Made by a program: the position numbers and the translations under genes | Shown: piece by piece, positions 37,197-62,844 of the stretch | How the letters are laid out: each line of letters starts with the position of its first letter | Position numbering within the stretch: the first letter of the stretch is position 1 | NCBI GenBank assembly: GCA_003155655.1 | Contig: PMDS01000025.1 | Coordinates: 354-64,353, forward strand | Direction of reading: 5' to 3' | From: Melioribacter sp. | GTDB taxonomy: Bacteria; Bacteroidota; Ignavibacteria; Ignavibacteriales; Melioribacteraceae | DNA length: 64,000 nucleotides | The notes under the pieces: model-generated | The model's input: only the letters and a program-made list of their open reading frames with translations | Told to the model about the DNA's origin: nothing | Database searches by the model: none

Positions 37197-40100
37197 ATGT
37201 CGAAACATAAAGACCCACTTGAATATTTTAGATTAAAGCCGATAAAAGCCGCAAAGGTTTCGGAGGTAAGTGAAACAACCGCTTCTTCAGGAGTGCCTGC
37301 TGAAGAAAGAGTAAATTTTCACATCGGTAACCCTGTGCAGGATAAACAGCTTTCTTCGGCTTATTTGCGGTTGATATTGGGCGTGGGAATCGAAAATCAA
37401 TTTTTAACTGATGATAATCTTGATGACGTTGTTAAATATCTGGATAGAGGTGTGGATGAAAAAGTTAAAGTTGAATTCTTATCAGCTCTCATAAAGAAAA
37501 GCGCGCCATATATGCCGCGGGGCGGGTATACTAAAAGCAATCCAAATTTTTTGATAAAATCATTTAATGAATGGCTTGTAAAAGATCAACAGGAACCGCT
37601 CTCCTATGATCTGGGCGAGGTCTCCGGCAAGCGGGAAATTATTTTAGCTTCAGGTGGCGTTGATGAAGCACTGAGAATTCTGTTTCTTGCTTTGCCTAAT
37701 TATTTTTTAAACCAAAACATAAAATTTCTTTTATACGAAAAAAATCTTCCCAAACATCTTTTGTCAATACCGTCTATTCAATTTGAAAGTATTGCACAGG
37801 ATGAGACAAAGCTTGTTAAAAATGTTAGAGAACAATTGATTAATTCCCAGGGAGTTCCAACATTTTTAATTCTAGGGAAAAATACAAGTGAAGGAACAAG
37901 AAGGAGCCTTCGTCATCTTAGTCTTGAACTCCCTCTCTTTTTTATAGAGGTCAATGATGCTCCTAATCATTTATCTCTTTCCCGTGAAGCAAAAATGATG
38001 AACAGGGTTCTGCGTTTTTTAACACCGCAAATTTTTTCTTCCAAATTTGCAAATCTCTCAACTGTTTTTATAGTCGGCAATTCCGAATTTATAAAGGTAA
38101 TAGAGACAATTCATTTCCAATTAAAAGGCACCCCTTCAGCCTCAGAAGTGGAATTTCTTTCGTTTCTAATAAAAGAAAATCTTGTAATTGAAACCGGTAA
38201 CGATAGAAAAATAGAAATTGAGCCATCATACGAAAGCAGCCTGTTGAAAATTGCCGGCGAAAAAACTACCGGGCCCCATGCAAAGTATATTGAAAATAAA
38301 TTATCTAATGCTGTTGAGCGGGCATCAAATATTTTAGAAGGCACTATTGGAAAAATTTCGATTAAAGAAAATGCAGTTGTAAACCGGTCAAAGAAATTAT
38401 TGTCATTTTTTTCGTTTGATAAATTTTCAGAAAAAGATGCTTTAGTGTTGCTTGATGAATTTATTGAAAATGTCGATTCATTAGCTTGGTTTGAAGAACT
38501 TATTGACAGCTTTCTTCATTCTTTTGTTAAGCACCATCCCGAATACAATATTAAGAATTGTGTAATAGCCAGCGGGTCATCCCGCACAGGTCTTGGACTG
38601 CTTGGTTTCCACTGCGGCATAAAGGAAGTTATAATTCCGGATTTAAGCTGGACTTACGAGCATTGTTTTCCCAAAGTTACTGTTGTTGCTCTCAAAGAGA
38701 ATTTCGAAATAGATGTTGATGCTTTGATTAATGCAGTTGAACATGCTCTATCGGCGGATCCTCACTGGAATAATTATGGCGCAGTTGTTTTGAACAATCC
38801 TCATAATGCAACGGGACAGCAGTTTGACAGCAGTGAGTTGAAACGTCTTCTTAAATGGGCGCTTGAGAAAAATATTTTTGTTATAGATGATCTCTCATAT
38901 CAAAACGTTGAACCGGTTGATGCTTTAAATCAAATAAAAACAATCAGGCAGCTGGCAGACGAACTTTATTCGGCAGGCTACATAACAAGAGAGCAGTCAA
39001 ATTTAGTTATTACTGTTCATTCGGTTTCAAAAACAGATTCACTTGCAGGCGCACGCCTTTCCGTTATGGAAATCCGCCATGAGGAATTGTTTAAAAAAGT
39101 TTCTGAAATTAATTCGACAATTAAACCGAACATAACGGCAATATTTTTAACATACTTGTTTTATAGATGCCACGCAGAAAATGTAAATGCATATTGGCGT
39201 TTACGCAATGTGATATTCAAAGAAAGAATGGCTTCACTTAGTGAAGCTGTCGACATTTTACCTAAAGAACGGAACAGGTTCAGCATAGAAATTAAACCGC
39301 CCAAAGGCAGTATGTATCCTCAAATGATTATTAAAAAGCTGCCGTCAGGATTATCTCTGGATTGGCTTGCAACCGGTCTGGCAAGACAAGGAATTGGGCT
39401 TATTCCGCTTTCAACATTTGCACGAACTGAAAAAGGATTTGAGGCAGGAAGGAAAACATTTCGTTTAACGCTTGGCGGGACTGATAATTCTGAAATACTT
39501 CTCAAAAAAACGAGACGTGTTCTAATTGATTTAAACAGGATGATTGCCGAAGAGGCTGCAAATTATAATTGCAAGCAATTTAAAGTAATTCCACGAATTA
39601 CAAAAAAATTATTTATTCATAATGAACAAATAGATAAATGGAATCTGGTTGAAAATAAAATAATTGAATTGTGCAAGGAGAATGCTGCCGGGACTATTAA
39701 GCAGCACAATGATGAATTTTCAGACGAAACATACTATAAAAGATTTGCGAATGAATTTATTCCAGAAAGGCTATATCTTTTTAAAAGACGTTTTGATGAA
39801 AGATTGAACATTGCAAACGAGCTTATGGAATCTGCACTGGCTGATAAGGGAAAAAATCTTGCAGCAGTTCTTGAACGTGAATTTTATAAGGACAACCTTG
39901 AAAAGAGAGAACGGGCATTCAAGCTAAGATTATACGACAGAACTGTGCATCCAACTCAGATGTATTCTTTAAAAGTTGACCTGCTCTTCCAGGAAATTAT
40001 TGAATTAATAATTAGGAATAAGAATATTCCGCTTGTCCTTATTCAAAAATTGGCGGCAGAATTAGCCAAAGAATTCTTTGGACTGAATGTCTCAATTATT

Positions 40101-42809
40101 TCCGCTGAAGAACCTTACGAATTGATTCTTGATCTAAATACAATTATTGCCGCAGAAAATTTCACAAACTTACATTCGGACCTATCATTCCAAACATTTA
40201 TATCTTTTTGGGGTGACTGGGATGGAAGCACCCGTCCATCAGGACAGGGGCACAGTTTAGTTGCTGCAGTGTTAAAAGAAAATGTTGCACGCCAATCAAG
40301 ATTGATTCAACTGCTGGTAAAGAGCGATAAATCAGTTAAGATTGATCAGAATCTTCTTTCGGAGATAGAAAAACTGCCTGAAAAGAATAAGCGGTTTTCA
40401 AATTTGCTAAATGATATAACGTCGCTTACTCATCAGTTGGAAAAGAGATACCGCGGAATTCTGCCTTTCAATTTAAAACCGGGGCGGGTAAGGGAATTAG
40501 GAATGCGCCTGCACATTGCGCAGGACCCTTTAACTTCCCTGTGGCATCATAATGACCGGCTTGAAAGAAAAATGCTTGAACTTCGCCTGCAAAGAAGAAA
40601 CACGCTTGAATATTATTTCTCATTAAACAAACAGATGAGAAAAGTTCTTCATTCATTAATACCTTCAATAATAAAAAACATTAACAATGAAGAATTATTT
40701 CTTGAAGCATGTTTGTTTAAAGATTTACTTAAACGTTTTGTTGTTACTCCGCGCATTCATCAAAAATTGATTACAACACAGGATCAATTTGCAATAGACA
40801 CAACTGTATATAACATTAACGAGATTAACGAAATTTCCGGAAAATACGGTAACCCCGGTATGGTGCTGGCATTGCAGGTTAGCATGTCTACTAAAGCTGA
40901 TGCATTGATTTCAATTGATAGAAAAATGCGTGCAAGACGCGAACAAATTTTGCGTGATGATAATGAAACTGAACTCCCGTCCCCATCAATAATTCCTTTG
41001 TTTGAAGATACTGATTCAGTGAAGAACCTAACCAATTACTTAAATAAAATTTGGGAATATGCTCTTCAAAGCAGACGCATGAACCAGGAAACAAGTGAAA
41101 GATTTTCCGAGATTATTGCAGAAGTTTTTGTTGCCGGTTCCGATTTAAGCCAGCAGGTTGGGCAGGCAGCGGGAATGAATTTATATAAAGCAGCAAAACA
41201 CCAGTTGACTTCGTGGCTTGCTGAAAAGGGTTTGATTGGTAAAGTTAGAATGAAAATGGGCAGCGGTGAACCAATGCAGCGCCAGGGAGGTTATTATTCA
41301 AACGTTGTCGGCAAATCTGCTTTTATAAAATCTGCAGATTCCTTGAAGAGGTTTTCTCAATATCTTAAAGCTTCAACTAGAAAAAGTACAGAGTATGCAG
41401 CAACACCGTTGATTGGAGTTTTTGCAGGAGGGGATTTACGCACTTTTCAAAGCAACATCTCTGAAAAATTGAGATATATTTCTGTAAATGAATTATCGCA
41501 GCTTCTTTACCATGTAAAAGAGTCCCAAAAATTTTACGAAACAGAAATAAAACGCGCAGGTGAACCGCTTGTTGAAACCAGGCTGCAATTTAAAACCCGG
41601 GGCTTAAAAGAATTAGAACGTCTTACCATCGGCAGAAAAGACGAACTGTTTGATGATTTCTTGTCCATTCTTACGGAAAATTTCCGTCAAATTTTATATG
41701 GCCGCGAAGAAGATGTTGTGGGAATACATGTTATTTCTTATTTCATTGCTAGAACAACCCCAAACCTGCGTGATAGACCCACCGTACGACCAGTACAAGG
41801 CGCTTCAGGCAGCGAAGGACAAAAAATTCTGGAAAGGATTGCACAGACAATACCGTTCTCCCGTTATGGAAGTCTACTGAGGGCAATTGCCCATAATCAA
41901 TCGCAAACTGTTGTATTGGGAATTAACCAGTTGACTTCTGGATTATTCCGTGCACTTGATAGTTTTTCGCAAAAGCATTTTAGCGAAGGAGAAACAAGCT
42001 CTTTAATTGAAGATAGAATTCTTCCCAATCTGCCCGTTTATGAAATTCTGCATACATTGCGCACCTATCATGATGTGGATTTGATTTATTTAAATAAACT
42101 GGAAAAAGCATTCCCGGCGGGTAACTCTGCATTCATTGCATTAAGAGAAGATATCGATTCTTTAAACAAGTATTTAATTTTATTTCAGCGTGAACTTTTA
42201 AGGCGCCATGGGCTTAATGTAACAGACTTTTTTGACGAAGATCAGTTTATTGCAGATCTTTTACCAACTCTGCGCCCTGATCTGGCAGTAATCTTACAGC
42301 AGGATTTTTTCAATACCAATCCCGAAAAAGTACTTTCATCTATCAGCGGGCACGTAGACTCCAAATGGATGGAAGAAACAAGGAAAATTCTTGTTATACC
42401 GGACCAGGTAAAATATTTTCGTTCAAAAATCTGGGATCTGCTGGAGCAGCCGGTATACCAGCGTGTTGCAAGCTTTAGCGAACTTGCAATTGCCCTGCAT
42501 TCTCTCTCATCAAATGTGCAGACTAAAGAACTTCCATTTGCACCAAAAAAAATAAAGCCGTCTGCTGATATATCAAATTTCTTCAAGATGTCCGGCGATG
42601 ATAATATGCGCCAGTTCCTTGCTGCAGCATTTGAATATCTATCTACTGTTTCCGAAGGAATGGTTGAAGTACCCATAAATATAATTCGTGCAATGAAAGA
42701 AGTTGAACGTATTATAAAAATAGAAGAACTTGCTCTTTCCCACAAACAGCAGGATCTTTTGCGGTTTTATTTATTGCAGATAGCACGCCTAACCGGCGAG
42801 AACGGGTAA
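37197..42809 (+). CDS. Giant multidomain protein (1870 aa): PLP-dependent fold-type I aminotransferase-like domain fused to a full-length, motif-degenerate phosphoenolpyruvate carboxylase (PEPC)-like domain
   Basis: Aminotransferase motifs: NPHNATGQQF...FVIDDLSY and VHSVSKTDSLAGARLS (PLP lysine). PEPC-like motifs: TVHPTQ (compare TAHPTE), SFWGDWDGSTRP (compare SWMGGDRDGNP), LQVSMSTKADAL...IPLFEDTDSVKNL (compare ISMAKTPSDVLAV...APLFETLDDLNNA) and VFVAGSDLSQ...KMGSGEPMQRQGG (compare VMIGYSDSAKDAG...FHGRGGSIGRGG). The C-terminus TGENG compares with the PEPC C-terminal NTG. Confidence 0.85.
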   Translation: MSKHKDPLEYFRLKPIKAAKVSEVSETTASSGVPAEERVNFHIGNPVQDKQLSSAYLRLILGVGIENQFLTDDNLDDVVKYLDRGVDEKVKVEFLSALIKKSAPYMPRGGYTKSNPNFLIKSFNEWLVKDQQEPLSYDLGEVSGKREIILASGGVDEALRILFLALPNYFLNQNIKFLLYEKNLPKHLLSIPSIQFESIAQDETKLVKNVREQLINSQGVPTFLILGKNTSEGTRRSLRHLSLELPLFFIEVNDAPNHLSLSREAKMMNRVLRFLTPQIFSSKFANLSTVFIVGNSEFIKVIETIHFQLKGTPSASEVEFLSFLIKENLVIETGNDRKIEIEPSYESSLLKIAGEKTTGPHAKYIENKLSNAVERASNILEGTIGKISIKENAVVNRSKKLLSFFSFDKFSEKDALVLLDEFIENVDSLAWFEELIDSFLHSFVKHHPEYNIKNCVIASGSSRTGLGLLGFHCGIKEVIIPDLSWTYEHCFPKVTVVALKENFEIDVDALINAVEHALSADPHWNNYGAVVLNNPHNATGQQFDSSELKRLLKWALEKNIFVIDDLSYQNVEPVDALNQIKTIRQLADELYSAGYITREQSNLVITVHSVSKTDSLAGARLSVMEIRHEELFKKVSEINSTIKPNITAIFLTYLFYRCHAENVNAYWRLRNVIFKERMASLSEAVDILPKERNRFSIEIKPPKGSMYPQMIIKKLPSGLSLDWLATGLARQGIGLIPLSTFARTEKGFEAGRKTFRLTLGGTDNSEILLKKTRRVLIDLNRMIAEEAANYNCKQFKVIPRITKKLFIHNEQIDKWNLVENKIIELCKENAAGTIKQHNDEFSDETYYKRFANEFIPERLYLFKRRFDERLNIANELMESALADKGKNLAAVLEREFYKDNLEKRERAFKLRLYDRTVHPTQMYSLKVDLLFQEIIELIIRNKNIPLVLIQKLAAELAKEFFGLNVSIISAEEPYELILDLNTIIAAENFTNLHSDLSFQTFISFWGDWDGSTRPSGQGHSLVAAVLKENVARQSRLIQLLVKSDKSVKIDQNLLSEIEKLPEKNKRFSNLLNDITSLTHQLEKRYRGILPFNLKPGRVRELGMRLHIAQDPLTSLWHHNDRLERKMLELRLQRRNTLEYYFSLNKQMRKVLHSLIPSIIKNINNEELFLEACLFKDLLKRFVVTPRIHQKLITTQDQFAIDTTVYNINEINEISGKYGNPGMVLALQVSMSTKADALISIDRKMRARREQILRDDNETELPSPSIIPLFEDTDSVKNLTNYLNKIWEYALQSRRMNQETSERFSEIIAEVFVAGSDLSQQVGQAAGMNLYKAAKHQLTSWLAEKGLIGKVRMKMGSGEPMQRQGGYYSNVVGKSAFIKSADSLKRFSQYLKASTRKSTEYAATPLIGVFAGGDLRTFQSNISEKLRYISVNELSQLLYHVKESQKFYETEIKRAGEPLVETRLQFKTRGLKELERLTIGRKDELFDDFLSILTENFRQILYGREEDVVGIHVISYFIARTTPNLRDRPTVRPVQGASGSEGQKILERIAQTIPFSRYGSLLRAIAHNQSQTVVLGINQLTSGLFRALDSFSQKHFSEGETSSLIEDRILPNLPVYEILHTLRTYHDVDLIYLNKLEKAFPAGNSAFIALREDIDSLNKYLILFQRELLRRHGLNVTDFFDEDQFIADLLPTLRPDLAVILQQDFFNTNPEKVLSSISGHVDSKWMEETRKILVIPDQVKYFRSKIWDLLEQPVYQRVASFSELAIALHSLSSNVQTKELPFAPKKIKPSADISNFFKMSGDDNMRQFLAAAFEYLSTVSEGMVEVPINIIRAMKEVERIIKIEELALSHKQQDLLRFYLLQIARLTGENG

Positions 42810-59108: not shown

Positions 59109-60422
59109 ATGGAAAACGTATGTAATATGACTCCAAAGATTTATCACCCTGGTCAAGTACTTTGTCCGAAGTATTCATTTTTAAAAGTACACATATCCAT
59201 TACAACACTTTTATTATCAACGGTTTTATGCGTGCTTATACTCACTGGATGCAGCCCTTCCGTTGAAGAACGCAAGCGTATAGTAGAATCGACTAATGAT
59301 CAAGCAGTATTGACAAAGATGGTAATTGAAGATTCAGACGAGGATATCCGTTTGGCAGCAATCGAAAAGATCTCAGACCAAGTATTCTTATCAAAGATAG
59401 CCACTAATGATTATTCCATTAAGTTGCGAGAGGTCGCAATCAAGAAGCTGACCGAGCAAGCTGTCTTATATCGTGTAGCCTGTGAAGATAAGGAACTGTC
59501 GCTACGAATTCTAGCCATTGGCAGGATGACAGATCAGCAGTTGTTATCCAGGTTGGCTTCCGAACCGCCTGCTGCTGCTATCCGTCTGGCTGCAGTTGCT
59601 TTGGTGACTAATGATGATTTCCTTTTGTCACGTAGCCGCTTGGACATTTCCGACGCAGTGCGAACAGCGGCTGTGGATGCAATTAAACAGGAAACTTACT
59701 TGGTACGTGTGATCATCGAAAACGATATTGAGGCTCAACGAGAAGCTGCACGCCGGCGTGTAAACGATCCAATGCTTCTCAAGCAAATCAATGTTGCAGA
59801 CCAACAGCGCGCCGCTAAATTGGCGTCGATTAAGAATCAAACCAATAATGATAAGCTGGCTGAAGTCGCATTACATGGTGAATTCGATCTTTTACGTTTA
59901 GAGGCAGCACGACAGCTTAATCAACAGGAAGCACTTGGCAAGGTTTCTAGCGAGACAAAAGACAGAGAAGTTTGTAAAATTGTCTTTGGCAAGTTGACAG
60001 ATCAGAAAGTCTTGCTTGTAGTCAGTGCCAACTCATCGGATAACGCTGTTCGAATTGCAGCTAGTATTAAATCAGGGCAAACCACTTGGGAAAATGTATT
60101 TGACAAAGCTTCAGCGAAAGGGGCTGGCTTGGTTGCTATTGGAGAAGCTTTAGCAGCTGTAGATCTCTTCCCCGAACAAGCAGGTGCGAAAGAAGGTGTT
60201 GTCCAAGCATGCTTAAACTTTATTAAACAGGGTGATGAGACACGCATTCCGGAATTAGCCGATTTGCTCGATCTCTATGGAGATGTATCGCTGACCGAGG
60301 ACTATCTGAACTGCGGTCAACCAGATCTAGATGTCGCGGGCCGCAAATGGGCTGGAAATCATGGGTATGACGTAGGCAGTGGGAACGGCTCAAATCGTGC
60401 TACATGGGGTAGCAACAAATAG
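59109..60422 (+). CDS. HEAT/PBS-lyase-like repeat lipoprotein
   Basis: 437 aa with a lipobox (LTGCSPS) and repeated ...VRLAAVEKL.DQ..L..VA..D... units. Its codon usage is noticeably more GC-rich than its neighbours. Confidence 0.55.
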   Translation: MENVCNMTPKIYHPGQVLCPKYSFLKVHISITTLLLSTVLCVLILTGCSPSVEERKRIVESTNDQAVLTKMVIEDSDEDIRLAAIEKISDQVFLSKIATNDYSIKLREVAIKKLTEQAVLYRVACEDKELSLRILAIGRMTDQQLLSRLASEPPAAAIRLAAVALVTNDDFLLSRSRLDISDAVRTAAVDAIKQETYLVRVIIENDIEAQREAARRRVNDPMLLKQINVADQQRAAKLASIKNQTNNDKLAEVALHGEFDLLRLEAARQLNQQEALGKVSSETKDREVCKIVFGKLTDQKVLLVVSANSSDNAVRIAASIKSGQTTWENVFDKASAKGAGLVAIGEALAAVDLFPEQAGAKEGVVQACLNFIKQGDETRIPELADLLDLYGDVSLTEDYLNCGQPDLDVAGRKWAGNHGYDVGSGNGSNRATWGSNK

Positions 60423-60648
60423 TATTTTAAAAAGACTCTAACTTTATTAATAAATAAAAAGTCAATGGGTAAAAAAATATTATTTGAACAATATAATTCC
60501 TCCCTCCTGCCGAATGAGGTCGGCAAGATGAATTTTAAGAAAGTCTTGTGACCGGGCGGAGATGTTTAGTATAAATGTTGATCTAATACAAATTCCCATT
60601 CCTCAAGAAAAATTACTAAATTACTTTCAGTAATTAAGGAGTTCACTT

Positions 60649-61380
60649 ATGAGAAATCTATTTGCAATAATAGTTTTATTATTATCGGTTTATATTCTAA
60701 AAGCTCAGAATAATTTCCAAACGGATATAATAAAAACATCAGCCGGTGATTTGAAAATAACTTTCATTGGCCATGGCACATTAATGTTTGAATTTAAAAA
60801 TATTATAACTCATATCGATCCGGTCAGCAGGTATGCAGATTACTCCCAATTACCAAAAGCCGATTTAATATTAATCACTCACCATCATGGAGATCATTTG
60901 GATCCGAAAGCAATTGAAACGATAAAAAAAGATGGTACGAAATTATTTTGTAATGAAGCGTCCCTTCAAACAGCGAAAAGTGGCTCTGTTCTAAAGAACG
61001 GTGATACAGCTTCATTCAATGGGATTAAAATTTTAGCAGTCCCTGCTTATAACATCATTAACAAAAGTGAAACAGGGCAAGCTTTTCATCCAAAGGGAAT
61101 GGGAAATGGTTATGTACTGACTTTTGCAAACGTAAAAGTTTATGTGGCTGGTGATACTGAAAATGTGCCGGAGATGAAAAATCTTAATGGTATTGATATC
61201 GCTTTTCTGCCAATGAACTTGCCTTATACTATGACTCCGTCAATGGTTGCAGATGCAGTAAAAATGTTTAATCCTAAAATTCTTTATCCTTATCATTATG
61301 GAAATACCAACGTTAATGAGTTAGTAGAACTATTGAAAGATAAAAAAGATTGTGAAGTACGAATTCGAAAAATGAATTAG
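60649..61380 (+). CDS. MBL-fold metallo-hydrolase (secreted)
   Basis: 243 aa with a signal peptide, an HHHGDH motif and downstream His/Asp ligands. Confidence 0.8.
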   Translation: MRNLFAIIVLLLSVYILKAQNNFQTDIIKTSAGDLKITFIGHGTLMFEFKNIITHIDPVSRYADYSQLPKADLILITHHHGDHLDPKAIETIKKDGTKLFCNEASLQTAKSGSVLKNGDTASFNGIKILAVPAYNIINKSETGQAFHPKGMGNGYVLTFANVKVYVAGDTENVPEMKNLNGIDIAFLPMNLPYTMTPSMVADAVKMFNPKILYPYHYGNTNVNELVELLKDKKDCEVRIRKMN

Positions 61381-61420
61381 ATATTATGTCTTGTCTTTGA
61401 AATTAATCGTTGCACTTTCC
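61354..61420. repeat. Direct repeat copy 1 (66-67 bp), covering the last 9 codons of the MBL gene plus ~40 bp downstream
   Basis: About 94% identical to 61489-61554. Confidence 0.75.
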
Positions 61421-61423
61421 AGG

Positions 61424-61483
61424 CAGTCAAGGACCACTCCTTGACTGTACAAACATTCTCTGTCGAGGAATGGTCCTCGACAG
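61424..61483. repeat. Tandem pair of perfect 10-bp-stem hairpins (CAGTCAAGGA-ccac-TCCTTGACTG and CTGTCGAGGA-atgg-TCCTCGACAG) flanked by the 66 bp direct repeats
   Basis: Read directly from the sequence. The two stems differ at two positions, both compensated on the opposite arm. Confidence 0.75.
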
Positions 61484-61488
61484 CCGAG

Positions 61489-61554
61489 GAAGTACGGATT
61501 CGAAAAATGAATTAAATATTATGTCTTGTCTTTGGAATTAATCGTTGCACTTTT
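61489..61554. repeat. Direct repeat copy 2 (66 bp)
   Basis: See 61354-61420. Confidence 0.75.
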
Positions 61555-61658
61555 TTCCATTATGGAAGGCGAAAAATCCTCACGTCCGGGTACTTACTTT
61601 CACGCTAAACGTATTTTATATGGGCTGTCATTAATCGGTTTTTTTTATTCGGGAAAAA

Positions 61659-61940
61659 TTATTCTTCATCAATAGTTGCTGTTCCGGTTCCTTTACTTGC
61701 ATCCCAATGCAGCGTAATTTTTACAGCCTTGCAAAGATCTAAGTCTGTCCATTCAAGAGAATTACCGGATGAGTCTTTAACTTTCAAATCCCATTTACAA
61801 ACATTTTCTCTGGGATGGAATTTGATATCTAATGATTGATCGGTATCAAGAGCATCCTGGCCTAAAATGTCTGCTCCCCAGTCATCGGATGAAGATGGAG
61901 AAATGTGTAGGTTGTTAATAACCACGCCTGTTTTGTTCAC
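61659..61940 (-). CDS. Hypothetical secreted protein. The true start is probably upstream at CTG 62030, with a GGAGGG SD and an in-frame signal peptide.
   Basis: The track ORF starts at a GTG. The in-frame upstream extension encodes a typical signal peptide (KKTLIKVFILILVSLATKTFAQG). It has no ATG but has a strong SD 5 nt before a CTG. Confidence 0.4.
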   Translation of the reverse strand: MNKTGVVINNLHISPSSSDDWGADILGQDALDTDQSLDIKFHPRENVCKWDLKVKDSSGNSLEWTDLDLCKAVKITLHWDASKGTGTATIDEE

Positions 61941-62292
61941 GAGCGTAAAGTCCTGCCTGCCTTGTGCAAAGGTTTTTGTAGCAAGTGAGACTAGGATTAA
62001 AATGAATACTTTGATTAATGTTTTTTTCAGTGCACCCTCCGCATAATTTAATTTGTTATTTAATAACTGCTCGATCAGATCTATTTTTTTTAACCCAGCT
62101 CAAAAATTTCTCTTATAATCACAAAGACTATGCCGCAAAAATATATCCTAAAAATATTAAAACGCAATTAGAAAATTTTAATCTTGTTCTATATAAAATA
62201 CTTTCATTTTACTTTATTAGACACTTATTTCAAAACGATTTTTTTGGGGGTGTAATTTGTAAGATGAATGTAATCACAGGGATATAATGAGC

Positions 62293-62844
62293 TTAATACC
62301 TGAAGCACTCTGTAATATGGTCATTAACCATTCCGACAGCCTGCATAAATGCATAACATATTGTCGACCCCGTAAATTTGAATCCACGCTTTTTTAAGTC
62401 CTTGCTCATTGCATCAGACATACTGGTTTTGGGCGGTATGTCTTTTAAGCTTTTATAATTATTCTTAACAGGTTTACCGCCAACAAACTGCCATATATAT
62501 TTATCGAAGGAACCAAATTCCTTTTGTACTTCAAGAAAACATTTGGCGTTTTGAATTGCAGCCCCTATTTTCAACCTGTTGCGTACAATGCCTTCATTTT
62601 GCAATAGCTGCTTCACTTTTTTAGCATTATATGCTGCAATTTTCTTTGCGTCAAAATTATCGAATGCCGCACGGTAATTATCCCGTTTGCGTAAAATTGT
62701 AATCCAGCTCAACCCGGCTTGCGCTCCTTCAAGTATTAACATTTCGAATAGTTTTCGGTCGTCATGAACAGGCACACCCCATTCTTCATCATGGTATTTT
62801 TGATATAGTGGATCATTACTTGACCACGGGCATCTTTGCTTCAT
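62293..62844 (-). CDS. tag: DNA-3-methyladenine glycosylase I
   Basis: 183 aa. CPWSSNDPLYQKYHDEEWGVP...LEGAQAGLSW matches the Tag family, including the zinc-binding Cys/His pattern. Confidence 0.85.
   Translation of the reverse strand: MKQRCPWSSNDPLYQKYHDEEWGVPVHDDRKLFEMLILEGAQAGLSWITILRKRDNYRAAFDNFDAKKIAAYNAKKVKQLLQNEGIVRNRLKIGAAIQNAKCFLEVQKEFGSFDKYIWQFVGGKPVKNNYKSLKDIPPKTSMSDAMSKDLKKRGFKFTGSTICYAFMQAVGMVNDHITECFRY

Follow-up and report, generated by a model that had tools for sequence, protein, structure and literature searches.

The stretch of DNA analysed here is a 64,000-nucleotide (nt) segment of a contig from a metagenome-assembled genome of Melioribacter sp. (PMDS01000025.1, positions 354 to 64,353 of the forward strand; hereafter the window), in which a pair of hairpins lies between two copies of the 3' end of a metallo-beta-lactamase (MBL)-fold hydrolase gene. 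The gene (60649–61380, + strand) is intact and encodes a 243-aa protein that matches Pfam Lactamase_B_3 and Lactamase_B_2. Its homologues, under names that include Ignavibacteriaceae, Ignavibacteriales, and Melioribacter, are nearly all 241–245 aa long and can be aligned end to end. The first repeat copy (61354–61418, + strand) consists of 27 nt from the very end of the coding sequence, TAG stop codon included, and 38 nt of downstream DNA, and the second (61489–61553, + strand) is a drifting pseudo-copy of the same gene end. The 70 nt between them (61419–61488) very probably constitute a REPIN (REP doublet forming a hairpin), a term used here in the sense of Bertels and Rainey (PMC3116915), that is, an inverted pair of repetitive extragenic palindromic (REP) units arranged as in the unit of a REP-associated tyrosine transposase (RAYT) minus the gene. 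The next gene downstream is small and convergent (61659–62033, − strand), with a product that looks secreted on reading of its sequence and has no Pfam match, and the REPIN lies inside the 278-nt gap between the two convergent genes.

The two repeat copies are 65 nt long, identical at 62 of the 65 positions (95%), and 135 nt apart from start to start; if a 3-nt indel in a T-run is allowed, the repeat possibly reaches 61421 (CCA) and 61559. An earlier interpretation made from the letters alone (the sequence-only reading) had recognized these repeats together with their 135-nt offset and 27 coding nt, although its figures of 66 bp, about 94% identity, about 40 nt of downstream sequence, and 68 bp between the copies need the small corrections given above. 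The boundaries of the repeat are the ends of the REPIN and lie 5 nt from either hairpin foot, the 5-nt joints being CCAGG between copy 1 and hairpin 1 and CCGAG between hairpin 2 and copy 2. The core of the repeat is present just twice in all sequence examined, and Tandem Repeats Finder did not report a 135-nt period.

Both hairpins have perfect 10-bp stems. REP unit 1, CAGTCAAGGA-CCAC-TCCTTGACTG (61424–61447, + strand), is preceded by an unpaired GG head (61422–61423). REP unit 2, CTGTCGAGGA-ATGG-TCCTCGACAG (61460–61483), is read on the − strand, where its loop is CCAT, and its head appears as CC at 61484–61485 of the + strand. Between them is the 12-nt spacer TACAAACATTCT (61448–61459), and the conserved core (GG-hairpin-spacer-hairpin-CC) spans 61422–61485. 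Between the two stems there are differences at positions 2 and 6, each compensated on the opposite arm, as the sequence-only reading had observed. That reading also took the hairpins for a tandem pair set back to back, but they are 12 nt apart and face in opposite directions: a covariance model (R1) gave 42.9 bits for hairpin 1 on the + strand (61418–61451) and 45.9 bits for hairpin 2, itself among the 58 sequences on which the model was trained, on the − strand (61456–61489). In the opposite orientations the window hairpins scored 19–20 bits, and nothing else in the window rose above about 10 bits. By these oriented scores the window hairpins are an inverted pair with their heads outward.

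Shuffles of the window gave an expectation of 0.00 occurrences of the motif, which was observed twice, both times within 61424–61483. The element contains an inverted repeat with 32-nt arms that are 78% complementary. Folding, which had been proposed as a check on the structure, upheld it: as single-stranded DNA the segment reached −23.1 kcal/mol (z = −5.8 relative to shuffles), and the minimum-energy RNA fold of 61340–61580 is one long hairpin. In an alignment with eight doublets from other genomes, the GG before hairpin 1 is invariant and the CC after hairpin 2 is present in most, while the spacers vary and the flanks outside the element are unrelated; the spacers of related doublets measure about 5–50 nt and often start with TACA. 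The REPIN can be written as 5'-GG-stem-CCAY-stem ... stem-RTGG-stem-CC-3'.

We scanned one genome per bacterial species for the exact pattern CWGTCRAGGA-N4-TCCTYGACWG, which had been suggested as a consensus from the two window copies. The motif is unique to this place within the window but occurs at 57 loci across the species-representative genomes, of which roughly half are from Ignavibacteria or Melioribacter, several genomes having 2–4 matches. Confinement of the motif to this place, which the sequence-only reading had named as grounds for refutation, holds within the 64 kb and fails across related genomes. At the Ignavibacteria and Melioribacter loci the 4-nt loop is kept as CCAY or its complement RTGG, so the palindrome has an orientation; the scattered matches in other phyla differ. 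A logo of 108 distinct hairpin copies oriented to the CCAY loop reads, from 5' to 3', R(−3) G(−2), then C-T-G-T-C-R-N-G-G-A, then CCAY, then T-C-C-N-Y-G-A-C-A-G, with G at −2 in 99 of the copies and no matching partner for it on the 3' side. The two outermost stem pairs, which lie outside the pattern used to collect the copies, are paired in 92 and 105 of the 108 (53 and 68 in shuffles) and comprise three to four pair types (C-G, G-C, T-A, and A-T). In an alignment of 58 hairpin sequences (A2), 96.7% of cells are paired, six of the ten pairs have changed on both sides, and the covariation score is 0.393 compared to 0.120 in shuffles; when the partner is slid by 1–3 columns, pairing falls to 29–43%. 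The hairpin structure is under selection across the family, as the sequence-only reading had argued from the two stems, and the family supports the compensation argument far better than the two window copies do.

A further scan of metagenome contigs for doublets (CCAY...RTGG hairpin pairs) returned 34 loci; individual loci in other sequences are designated below by the prefix L. L092 (JAAUYI010040427.1, 1–1100) has its REP segment centred in a long, almost perfect inverted repeat that reaches into either flank by 60 nt or more, and it looks like a fold-back assembly artefact and not a genuine doublet; L081 is a chance match in G+C-rich DNA. At L039 (5812–6297, − strand) and L098 (558–737), open reading frames (ORFs) extend into the REP hairpins, one frame translating as ...VKDHSLT..., and at L039 the hairpin itself encodes the C-terminus of a 161-aa protein.

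RAYT genes lie beside these same hairpins in relatives. At L039, a gap of 2 nt separates the hairpin from a 184-aa gene whose product matches Pfam Y1_Tnp and has as its best Protein Data Bank match 4ER8, the E. coli TnpA_REP, with the HUH and catalytic tyrosine regions aligned (PSHFHWI/PEHMHCI and YIHNNPV/YIYINPV). The L039, L022, and L058 proteins score 116.7–123 bits on NCBIfam NF047646 (“REP-associated tyrosine transposase”; cut-off 80 bits) and 27–31 bits on the IS200 equivalog model, under its cut-off of 55 bits. With tblastn, a RAYT gene or remnant was found beside or between hairpins in L009, L022, L039, L043, L045, L053, L057, L058, and L060, and where both flanking hairpins are present (L022, L039, L043, L058, and others), CCAY is on one side and RTGG on the other, heads outward. 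A RAYT gene flanked by inverted REPs is the defining arrangement of REP/RAYT units (PMC2817692). Because the hairpins of these relatives flank RAYT genes in the same head-out inverted arrangement as the window pair, we read the window pair as a REPIN. In the metagenome-assembled genome IGN16, at least 2–3 copies of an element of about 300 nt (L045:2685–2984, L053:938–1237, and L065:~1690–1770) consist of a CCAC-loop hairpin, 256 nt with a RAYT remnant, and an ATGG-loop hairpin, with an interior common to the copies. These elements are multicopy deletion derivatives of a RAYT unit and are more like insertion sequences than like a domesticated single-copy RAYT.

The comparison that best describes the element is with the REP/REPIN-RAYT systems of E. 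coli (REPs and bacterial interspersed mosaic elements with TnpA_REP/YafM) and of Pseudomonas fluorescens SBW25, which was the correct one of the three offered by the sequence-only reading. Shared features include a short palindrome next to which a conserved head is left unpaired, the formation of a long hairpin by two inverted copies, palindromes in inverted orientation around a single RAYT gene, compensatory stem changes, an extragenic position between convergent genes, and occasional clusters with duplicated flanks. The differences are that the host belongs to Ignavibacteria and not to Proteobacteria, that the head is R-G instead of GTAG, that the 10-bp stem is perfect and carries a conserved 4-nt CCAY loop, that density is low (one doublet per 64 kb), and that at least one genome, IGN16, holds multicopy derivatives with RAYT remnants. 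In addition, one REPIN is found here between two flank copies, in contrast to a tandem array of REPIN plus flank.

IS200/IS605 elements (IS608, ISDra2, and miniature derivatives), another of the comparisons offered, resemble the system in that an HUH/Y1 transposase reads subterminal hairpins of single-stranded DNA and that non-autonomous derivatives retain the ends alone. In the family described here, however, the protein of relatives falls below the IS200 cut-off and above the RAYT cut-off, the end hairpins are inverted instead of direct, no TnpB gene is present, and the window element has a 65-nt flanking duplication; on the sub-cut-off score, the inverted hairpins, and the duplication, an IS200/IS605 element is ruled out. 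CGTC-tagged REPs (Di Nocera et al. 2013, PMC3733652), whose reported hosts include Chlorobi and Bacteroidetes, are similar in that some of our copies start with CGTC or TGTC, the loop is of 4 nt, and dimers are head to head. Those REPs have an unpaired CGTC tag, stems of 8–9 bp starting with A-T, a CCA tail, and no transposase (PMC3733652), whereas in the present family the (C/T)GTC is base-paired with GAC(A/G) and there is an associated RAYT, which rules them out.

The structure might instead be purely a host regulatory one that was never mobile, such as a stabiliser of the mRNA 3' end, a terminator, or a protein-binding site. Enterobacterial REPs do stabilise upstream mRNA and bind host proteins (PMC3733652, PMC2817692), and the element sits between two convergent genes, but the MBL orthologues examined lack it, and the same element occurs by unrelated genes in many genomes and also flanks a transposase gene. 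Neither hairpin is followed by a T-run (TACAAAC and CCGAGGA follow them), and a scan of 60400–62300 found no terminator-like site on either strand, so the statement of the sequence-only reading that this is no simple terminator holds. We regard an exclusively regulatory origin as having hardly any probability, and a secondary role in mRNA stability is compatible with the REPIN. Across the entire window, no Rfam family was matched at gathering thresholds; a permissive search returned sub-threshold microRNA-precursor models on the long hairpin, which were rejected because they are generic long-hairpin matches. A CRISPR-like repeat-spacer structure was also set aside, as the repeats number just two and overlap the end of a gene, and what would be the “spacer” is an already known mobile element.

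Site-specific recombination, the remaining proposal, fails at this locus. An integron attC site is likewise an imperfect palindrome (about 60–140 nt), and its recombination takes place on a folded single strand, but here the arms are perfect hairpins independent of each other, and a cassette array is absent; the segment ends carry no R''/R' cores (RYYYAAC/GTTRRRY), the nearest candidate, GTTGCAC, misfits, and no tyrosine recombinase is encoded among the 38 window ORFs of at least 180 aa. Another version would make the locus the relic of a tyrosine- or serine-recombinase element that targeted the 3' end of the MBL gene, leaving attL and attR after most of its body was deleted. Integrative elements of this kind usually rebuild the 3' end of the gene that they enter, so that it forms a direct repeat tens of bases long and the gene stays intact through the upstream copy. 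Both coding changes in copy 2 (CGA>CGG and TAG>TAA) are silent, as would be expected had that copy served another strain as its coding end, but with two changes in all this is weak evidence. Only 70 nt separate the repeats, with no element body, and all of them belong to the REPIN and align with copies elsewhere; no transposase, integrase, or recombinase was found among the 38 ORFs; no tRNA or transfer-messenger RNA that could serve as an integration target is present in the window; and the same architecture is found at unrelated targets, including the non-coding leader upstream of ileS described below. The integrative relic is therefore already close to refuted. The description of the locus as the footprint of a mini-insertion says too little, since the insert is an intact element and not a scar.

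The duplication itself is derived host sequence. At orthologous MBL loci (L002–L008 and L100; 83–90% amino acid identity) there is a single gene end, ...CGAATTCGAAAAATGAATTAG, followed by unrelated DNA. Neither the duplication nor the hairpin is present at these loci, and their downstream DNA is not homologous to the window; as the orthologues have one copy of the gene end, the duplication is derived. Copy 2 differs from copy 1 by CGA>CGG, TAG>TAA, and GAAATT>GGAATT. Every orthologue shows CGA and TAG, the state of copy 1, at both polarisable positions, and copy 2 is derived at both. From this polarity, copy 1 is the conserved functional gene end and copy 2 the drifting pseudo-copy, and since copy 2 carries derived changes, the duplication is not brand-new.

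As the window comes from a metagenome-assembled genome, the arrangement could also have arisen in assembly, if two strains carrying the same REPIN 65 nt apart had been joined through the common 70-nt element, which could exceed the k-mers of the assembler. The three differences between the copies resemble strain alleles, and independent support covers the first junction alone: a second assembly, from run SRR7151544 (L001), agrees with the window over the gene end and copy 1 and across the junction into hairpin 1, inside which it stops. Look-ups of a junction-spanning 43-aa ORF and of a downstream 93-aa ORF found no record. Such a join would, however, need the same element inside the coding sequence of the second strain, and real reads must in either case contain the step from hairpin 2 into GAAGTACGG. 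Equivalent structures were, moreover, assembled independently, three times at one locus (L031, L077, and L094) and twice at another (L098 and L099). We accordingly hold an artefact to be highly improbable.

Flank duplications recur at other REP/RAYT elements. L031, L077, and L094, a single locus from three independent assemblies that is counted as one, carry, upstream of ileS, a 26-nt repeat without mismatches whose copies lie 5 and 9 nt from the doublet. The ileS leader there (L077:2380–2640, also L031 and L094) is rich in CCACAAAA / TTTTGTGG motifs in an inverted-repeat arrangement. L098 (166–910) contains three copies, separated by REPINs, of a segment of about 181 nt made up of the 3' end of an 803-aa gene and the DNA that follows it; L099 (reverse) has at least two units of REPIN plus about 181 nt, with the contig ending inside the array, and the related L074 (1340–1640) has one. 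The number of units of REPIN plus gene end varies among lake metagenome samples, and in the L098/L099 array the REPINs diverge more than the flank copies do, the newest-looking REPIN having perfect stems and identical flanks and the outermost being degenerate. Two loci are counted as possible cases because their repeats sit further from the hairpins (21–156 nt): L058, a full RAYT unit with a flanking repeat of about 70 nt (about 75% identical), and L047, with one of 48 nt (88% identical), whose reading as a RAYT remnant rests on a short nucleotide resemblance. Every such repeat was found solely as its flanking pair in all sequence examined, and a comparable score, anywhere within 200 nt, was reached by 0.7% of random positions in the same sequences. 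A published parallel exists in P. fluorescens SBW25, where tandem REPIN repeats “including the flanking sequences” were described and the cause of such “ordered” clusters was unknown (PMC3116915). Taken together, the link between flank duplication and REP/RAYT elements is real but occasional, a by-product and not the rule.

Taking all of this into account, we estimate at roughly 70% the probability that a REPIN, with a host duplication tied to the ends of the element, fully explains the locus. We infer that the REPIN is non-autonomous and is served in trans by a RAYT encoded elsewhere in the genome, which, by analogy with E. coli TnpA_REP and IS200/IS605, would recognise the folded single-stranded hairpin via its loop and unpaired head and then cut beside it. 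The 65-nt duplication would have formed together with the insertion of the element or its processing by the RAYT, a connection suggested by the fact that both repeat boundaries abut the element ends. Copy 1 would have remained joined to the MBL gene, keeping it intact, while the redundant copy 2 decayed. Mobility of the family is in line with the presence of REPINs in unrelated contexts, the MBL orthologues that lack the element, and the different copy numbers at L074 and L098.

Several observations weigh against this explanation. With the host genome represented by the 64-kb window, there is a single doublet, and neither a further hairpin copy nor a RAYT gene was found. The window locus also yielded no empty-site allele, and the closest available orthologues (90% and 83–86% identity) have unrelated DNA downstream. 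Support from an independent assembly, as mentioned, is limited to the first junction, and about 30 of 35 distinct doublet loci have no flanking repeat. Y1 transposition of the IS200/IS605 type is described as producing no target duplication (PMC2817692). At L098, 5 nt of non-element flank (TCTTT) before the REPIN are common to all three units, a sharing that fits tandem duplication of a REPIN-plus-flank unit better than independent insertions. Finally, flank copies 1 and 2 of L098 are identical (178/178), yet the middle REPIN, which they enclose, departs from both neighbouring REPINs by three substitutions of its own and an indel in the spacer; this divergence is not predicted by simple co-duplication or by unequal crossing-over and so fits neither simple model. 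On top of the duplication at L098, REPINs may have been replaced at a fixed site, either through conversion or because one was excised and another inserted again.

One way in which the duplication could form is coupled to replication. The RAYT would cut the template at the REPIN end, so that the growing strand runs off exactly there and primes again upstream, at a distance of a few tens to about 200 nt, on a sister or resealed strand. Re-priming on a template without the element would give flank-REPIN-flank, as in the window, and re-priming on a template with the element would give a tandem array of flank plus REPIN. This scheme, which we propose with low confidence, would account for junctions that coincide with the element ends, for repeats of differing length, and for the small number of filler bases (5 nt at L077); a long staggered target cut at insertion would give the identical sequence.

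The main competitor of the run-off scheme is a tandem duplication followed by loss, in which the REPIN inserted without duplication 38 nt past the stop codon, the unit of 65-nt flank plus REPIN was duplicated in tandem into an “ordered REPIN cluster,” and the distal REPIN was precisely excised. The L098/L099 locus is a true tandem array with a REPIN after each flank copy and the shared 5 nt of non-element flank, such clusters have been described in SBW25, and REPIN excision has been seen by population sequencing (PMC3116915). The course of events would nevertheless require two steps, a filter-free covariance search found no second REPIN remnant after copy 2, the L077-type locus is likewise without a distal REPIN, and a random tandem duplication is not expected to break exactly at the REPIN end. 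On balance, we find this history unlikely and prefer a duplication formed with the insertion or processing of the REPIN.

REPINs and RAYTs are well studied in Proteobacteria, and the type of element found here is already known; what is new is a REP/RAYT family in Ignavibacteria, a lineage for which a search of the available papers turned up none that deals with RAYTs, judged by title or abstract. The flank duplication is less familiar, with a published parallel whose mechanism is not known. The window, two clear loci, and two weaker loci form a small set of cases of host duplication at element ends, and if the pattern is general, it constrains the mechanism of REPINs. A broader and still doubtful proposition is that the REPINs and RAYT units of the Ignavibacteria lineage create host duplications of variable length (26 to about 180 nt) on insertion or processing. 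If so, the host duplications would be a signature unknown for any HUH transposon of the IS200/IS605 type, and flank-REPIN-flank sites would be fossil records of the still unobserved insertion step of REPINs, whose insertions could not be confirmed in population sequencing (PMC3116915). It would also favour a replication-coupled route (run-off and upstream re-priming) over simple peel-and-paste. For annotation, the MBL gene should be treated as intact and the second “gene end” as a pseudo-copy, and the hairpins should not be labelled as a terminator, an attC site, or a small RNA.

From the TAG stop of the MBL gene to the TAA of the second copy (61378–61515), 135 nt or 45 codons are open in the MBL frame, and read-through of the TAG would append 45 residues with the same EVRIRKMN ending. 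We judged the open frame to be a coincidence (estimated chance about 0.02), because the homologues end at 243 aa and just one of the two unit lengths at L098 is divisible by 3. The 38 window ORFs of at least 180 aa belong to the ordinary chromosomal repertoire, among them alaS, hflX, and genes for a Sua5-type threonylcarbamoyl-AMP synthase and a sigma factor. An ORF of 1870 aa (37197–42809, + strand) has as its sole Pfam match an aminotransferase class I/II domain at residues 431–761, with about 1500 other residues unmatched. The convergent ORF downstream of the REPIN (61659–62033, − strand) has a signal-peptide-like N-terminus, LKKTLIKVFILILVSLATKTFAQG, with GGAGGG just before it. No in-frame ATG, GTG, or TTG stands ahead of this N-terminus, the first listed start being a GTG at 61940, and a CTG start, a sequencing error, or the recent loss of a start codon are possible explanations.

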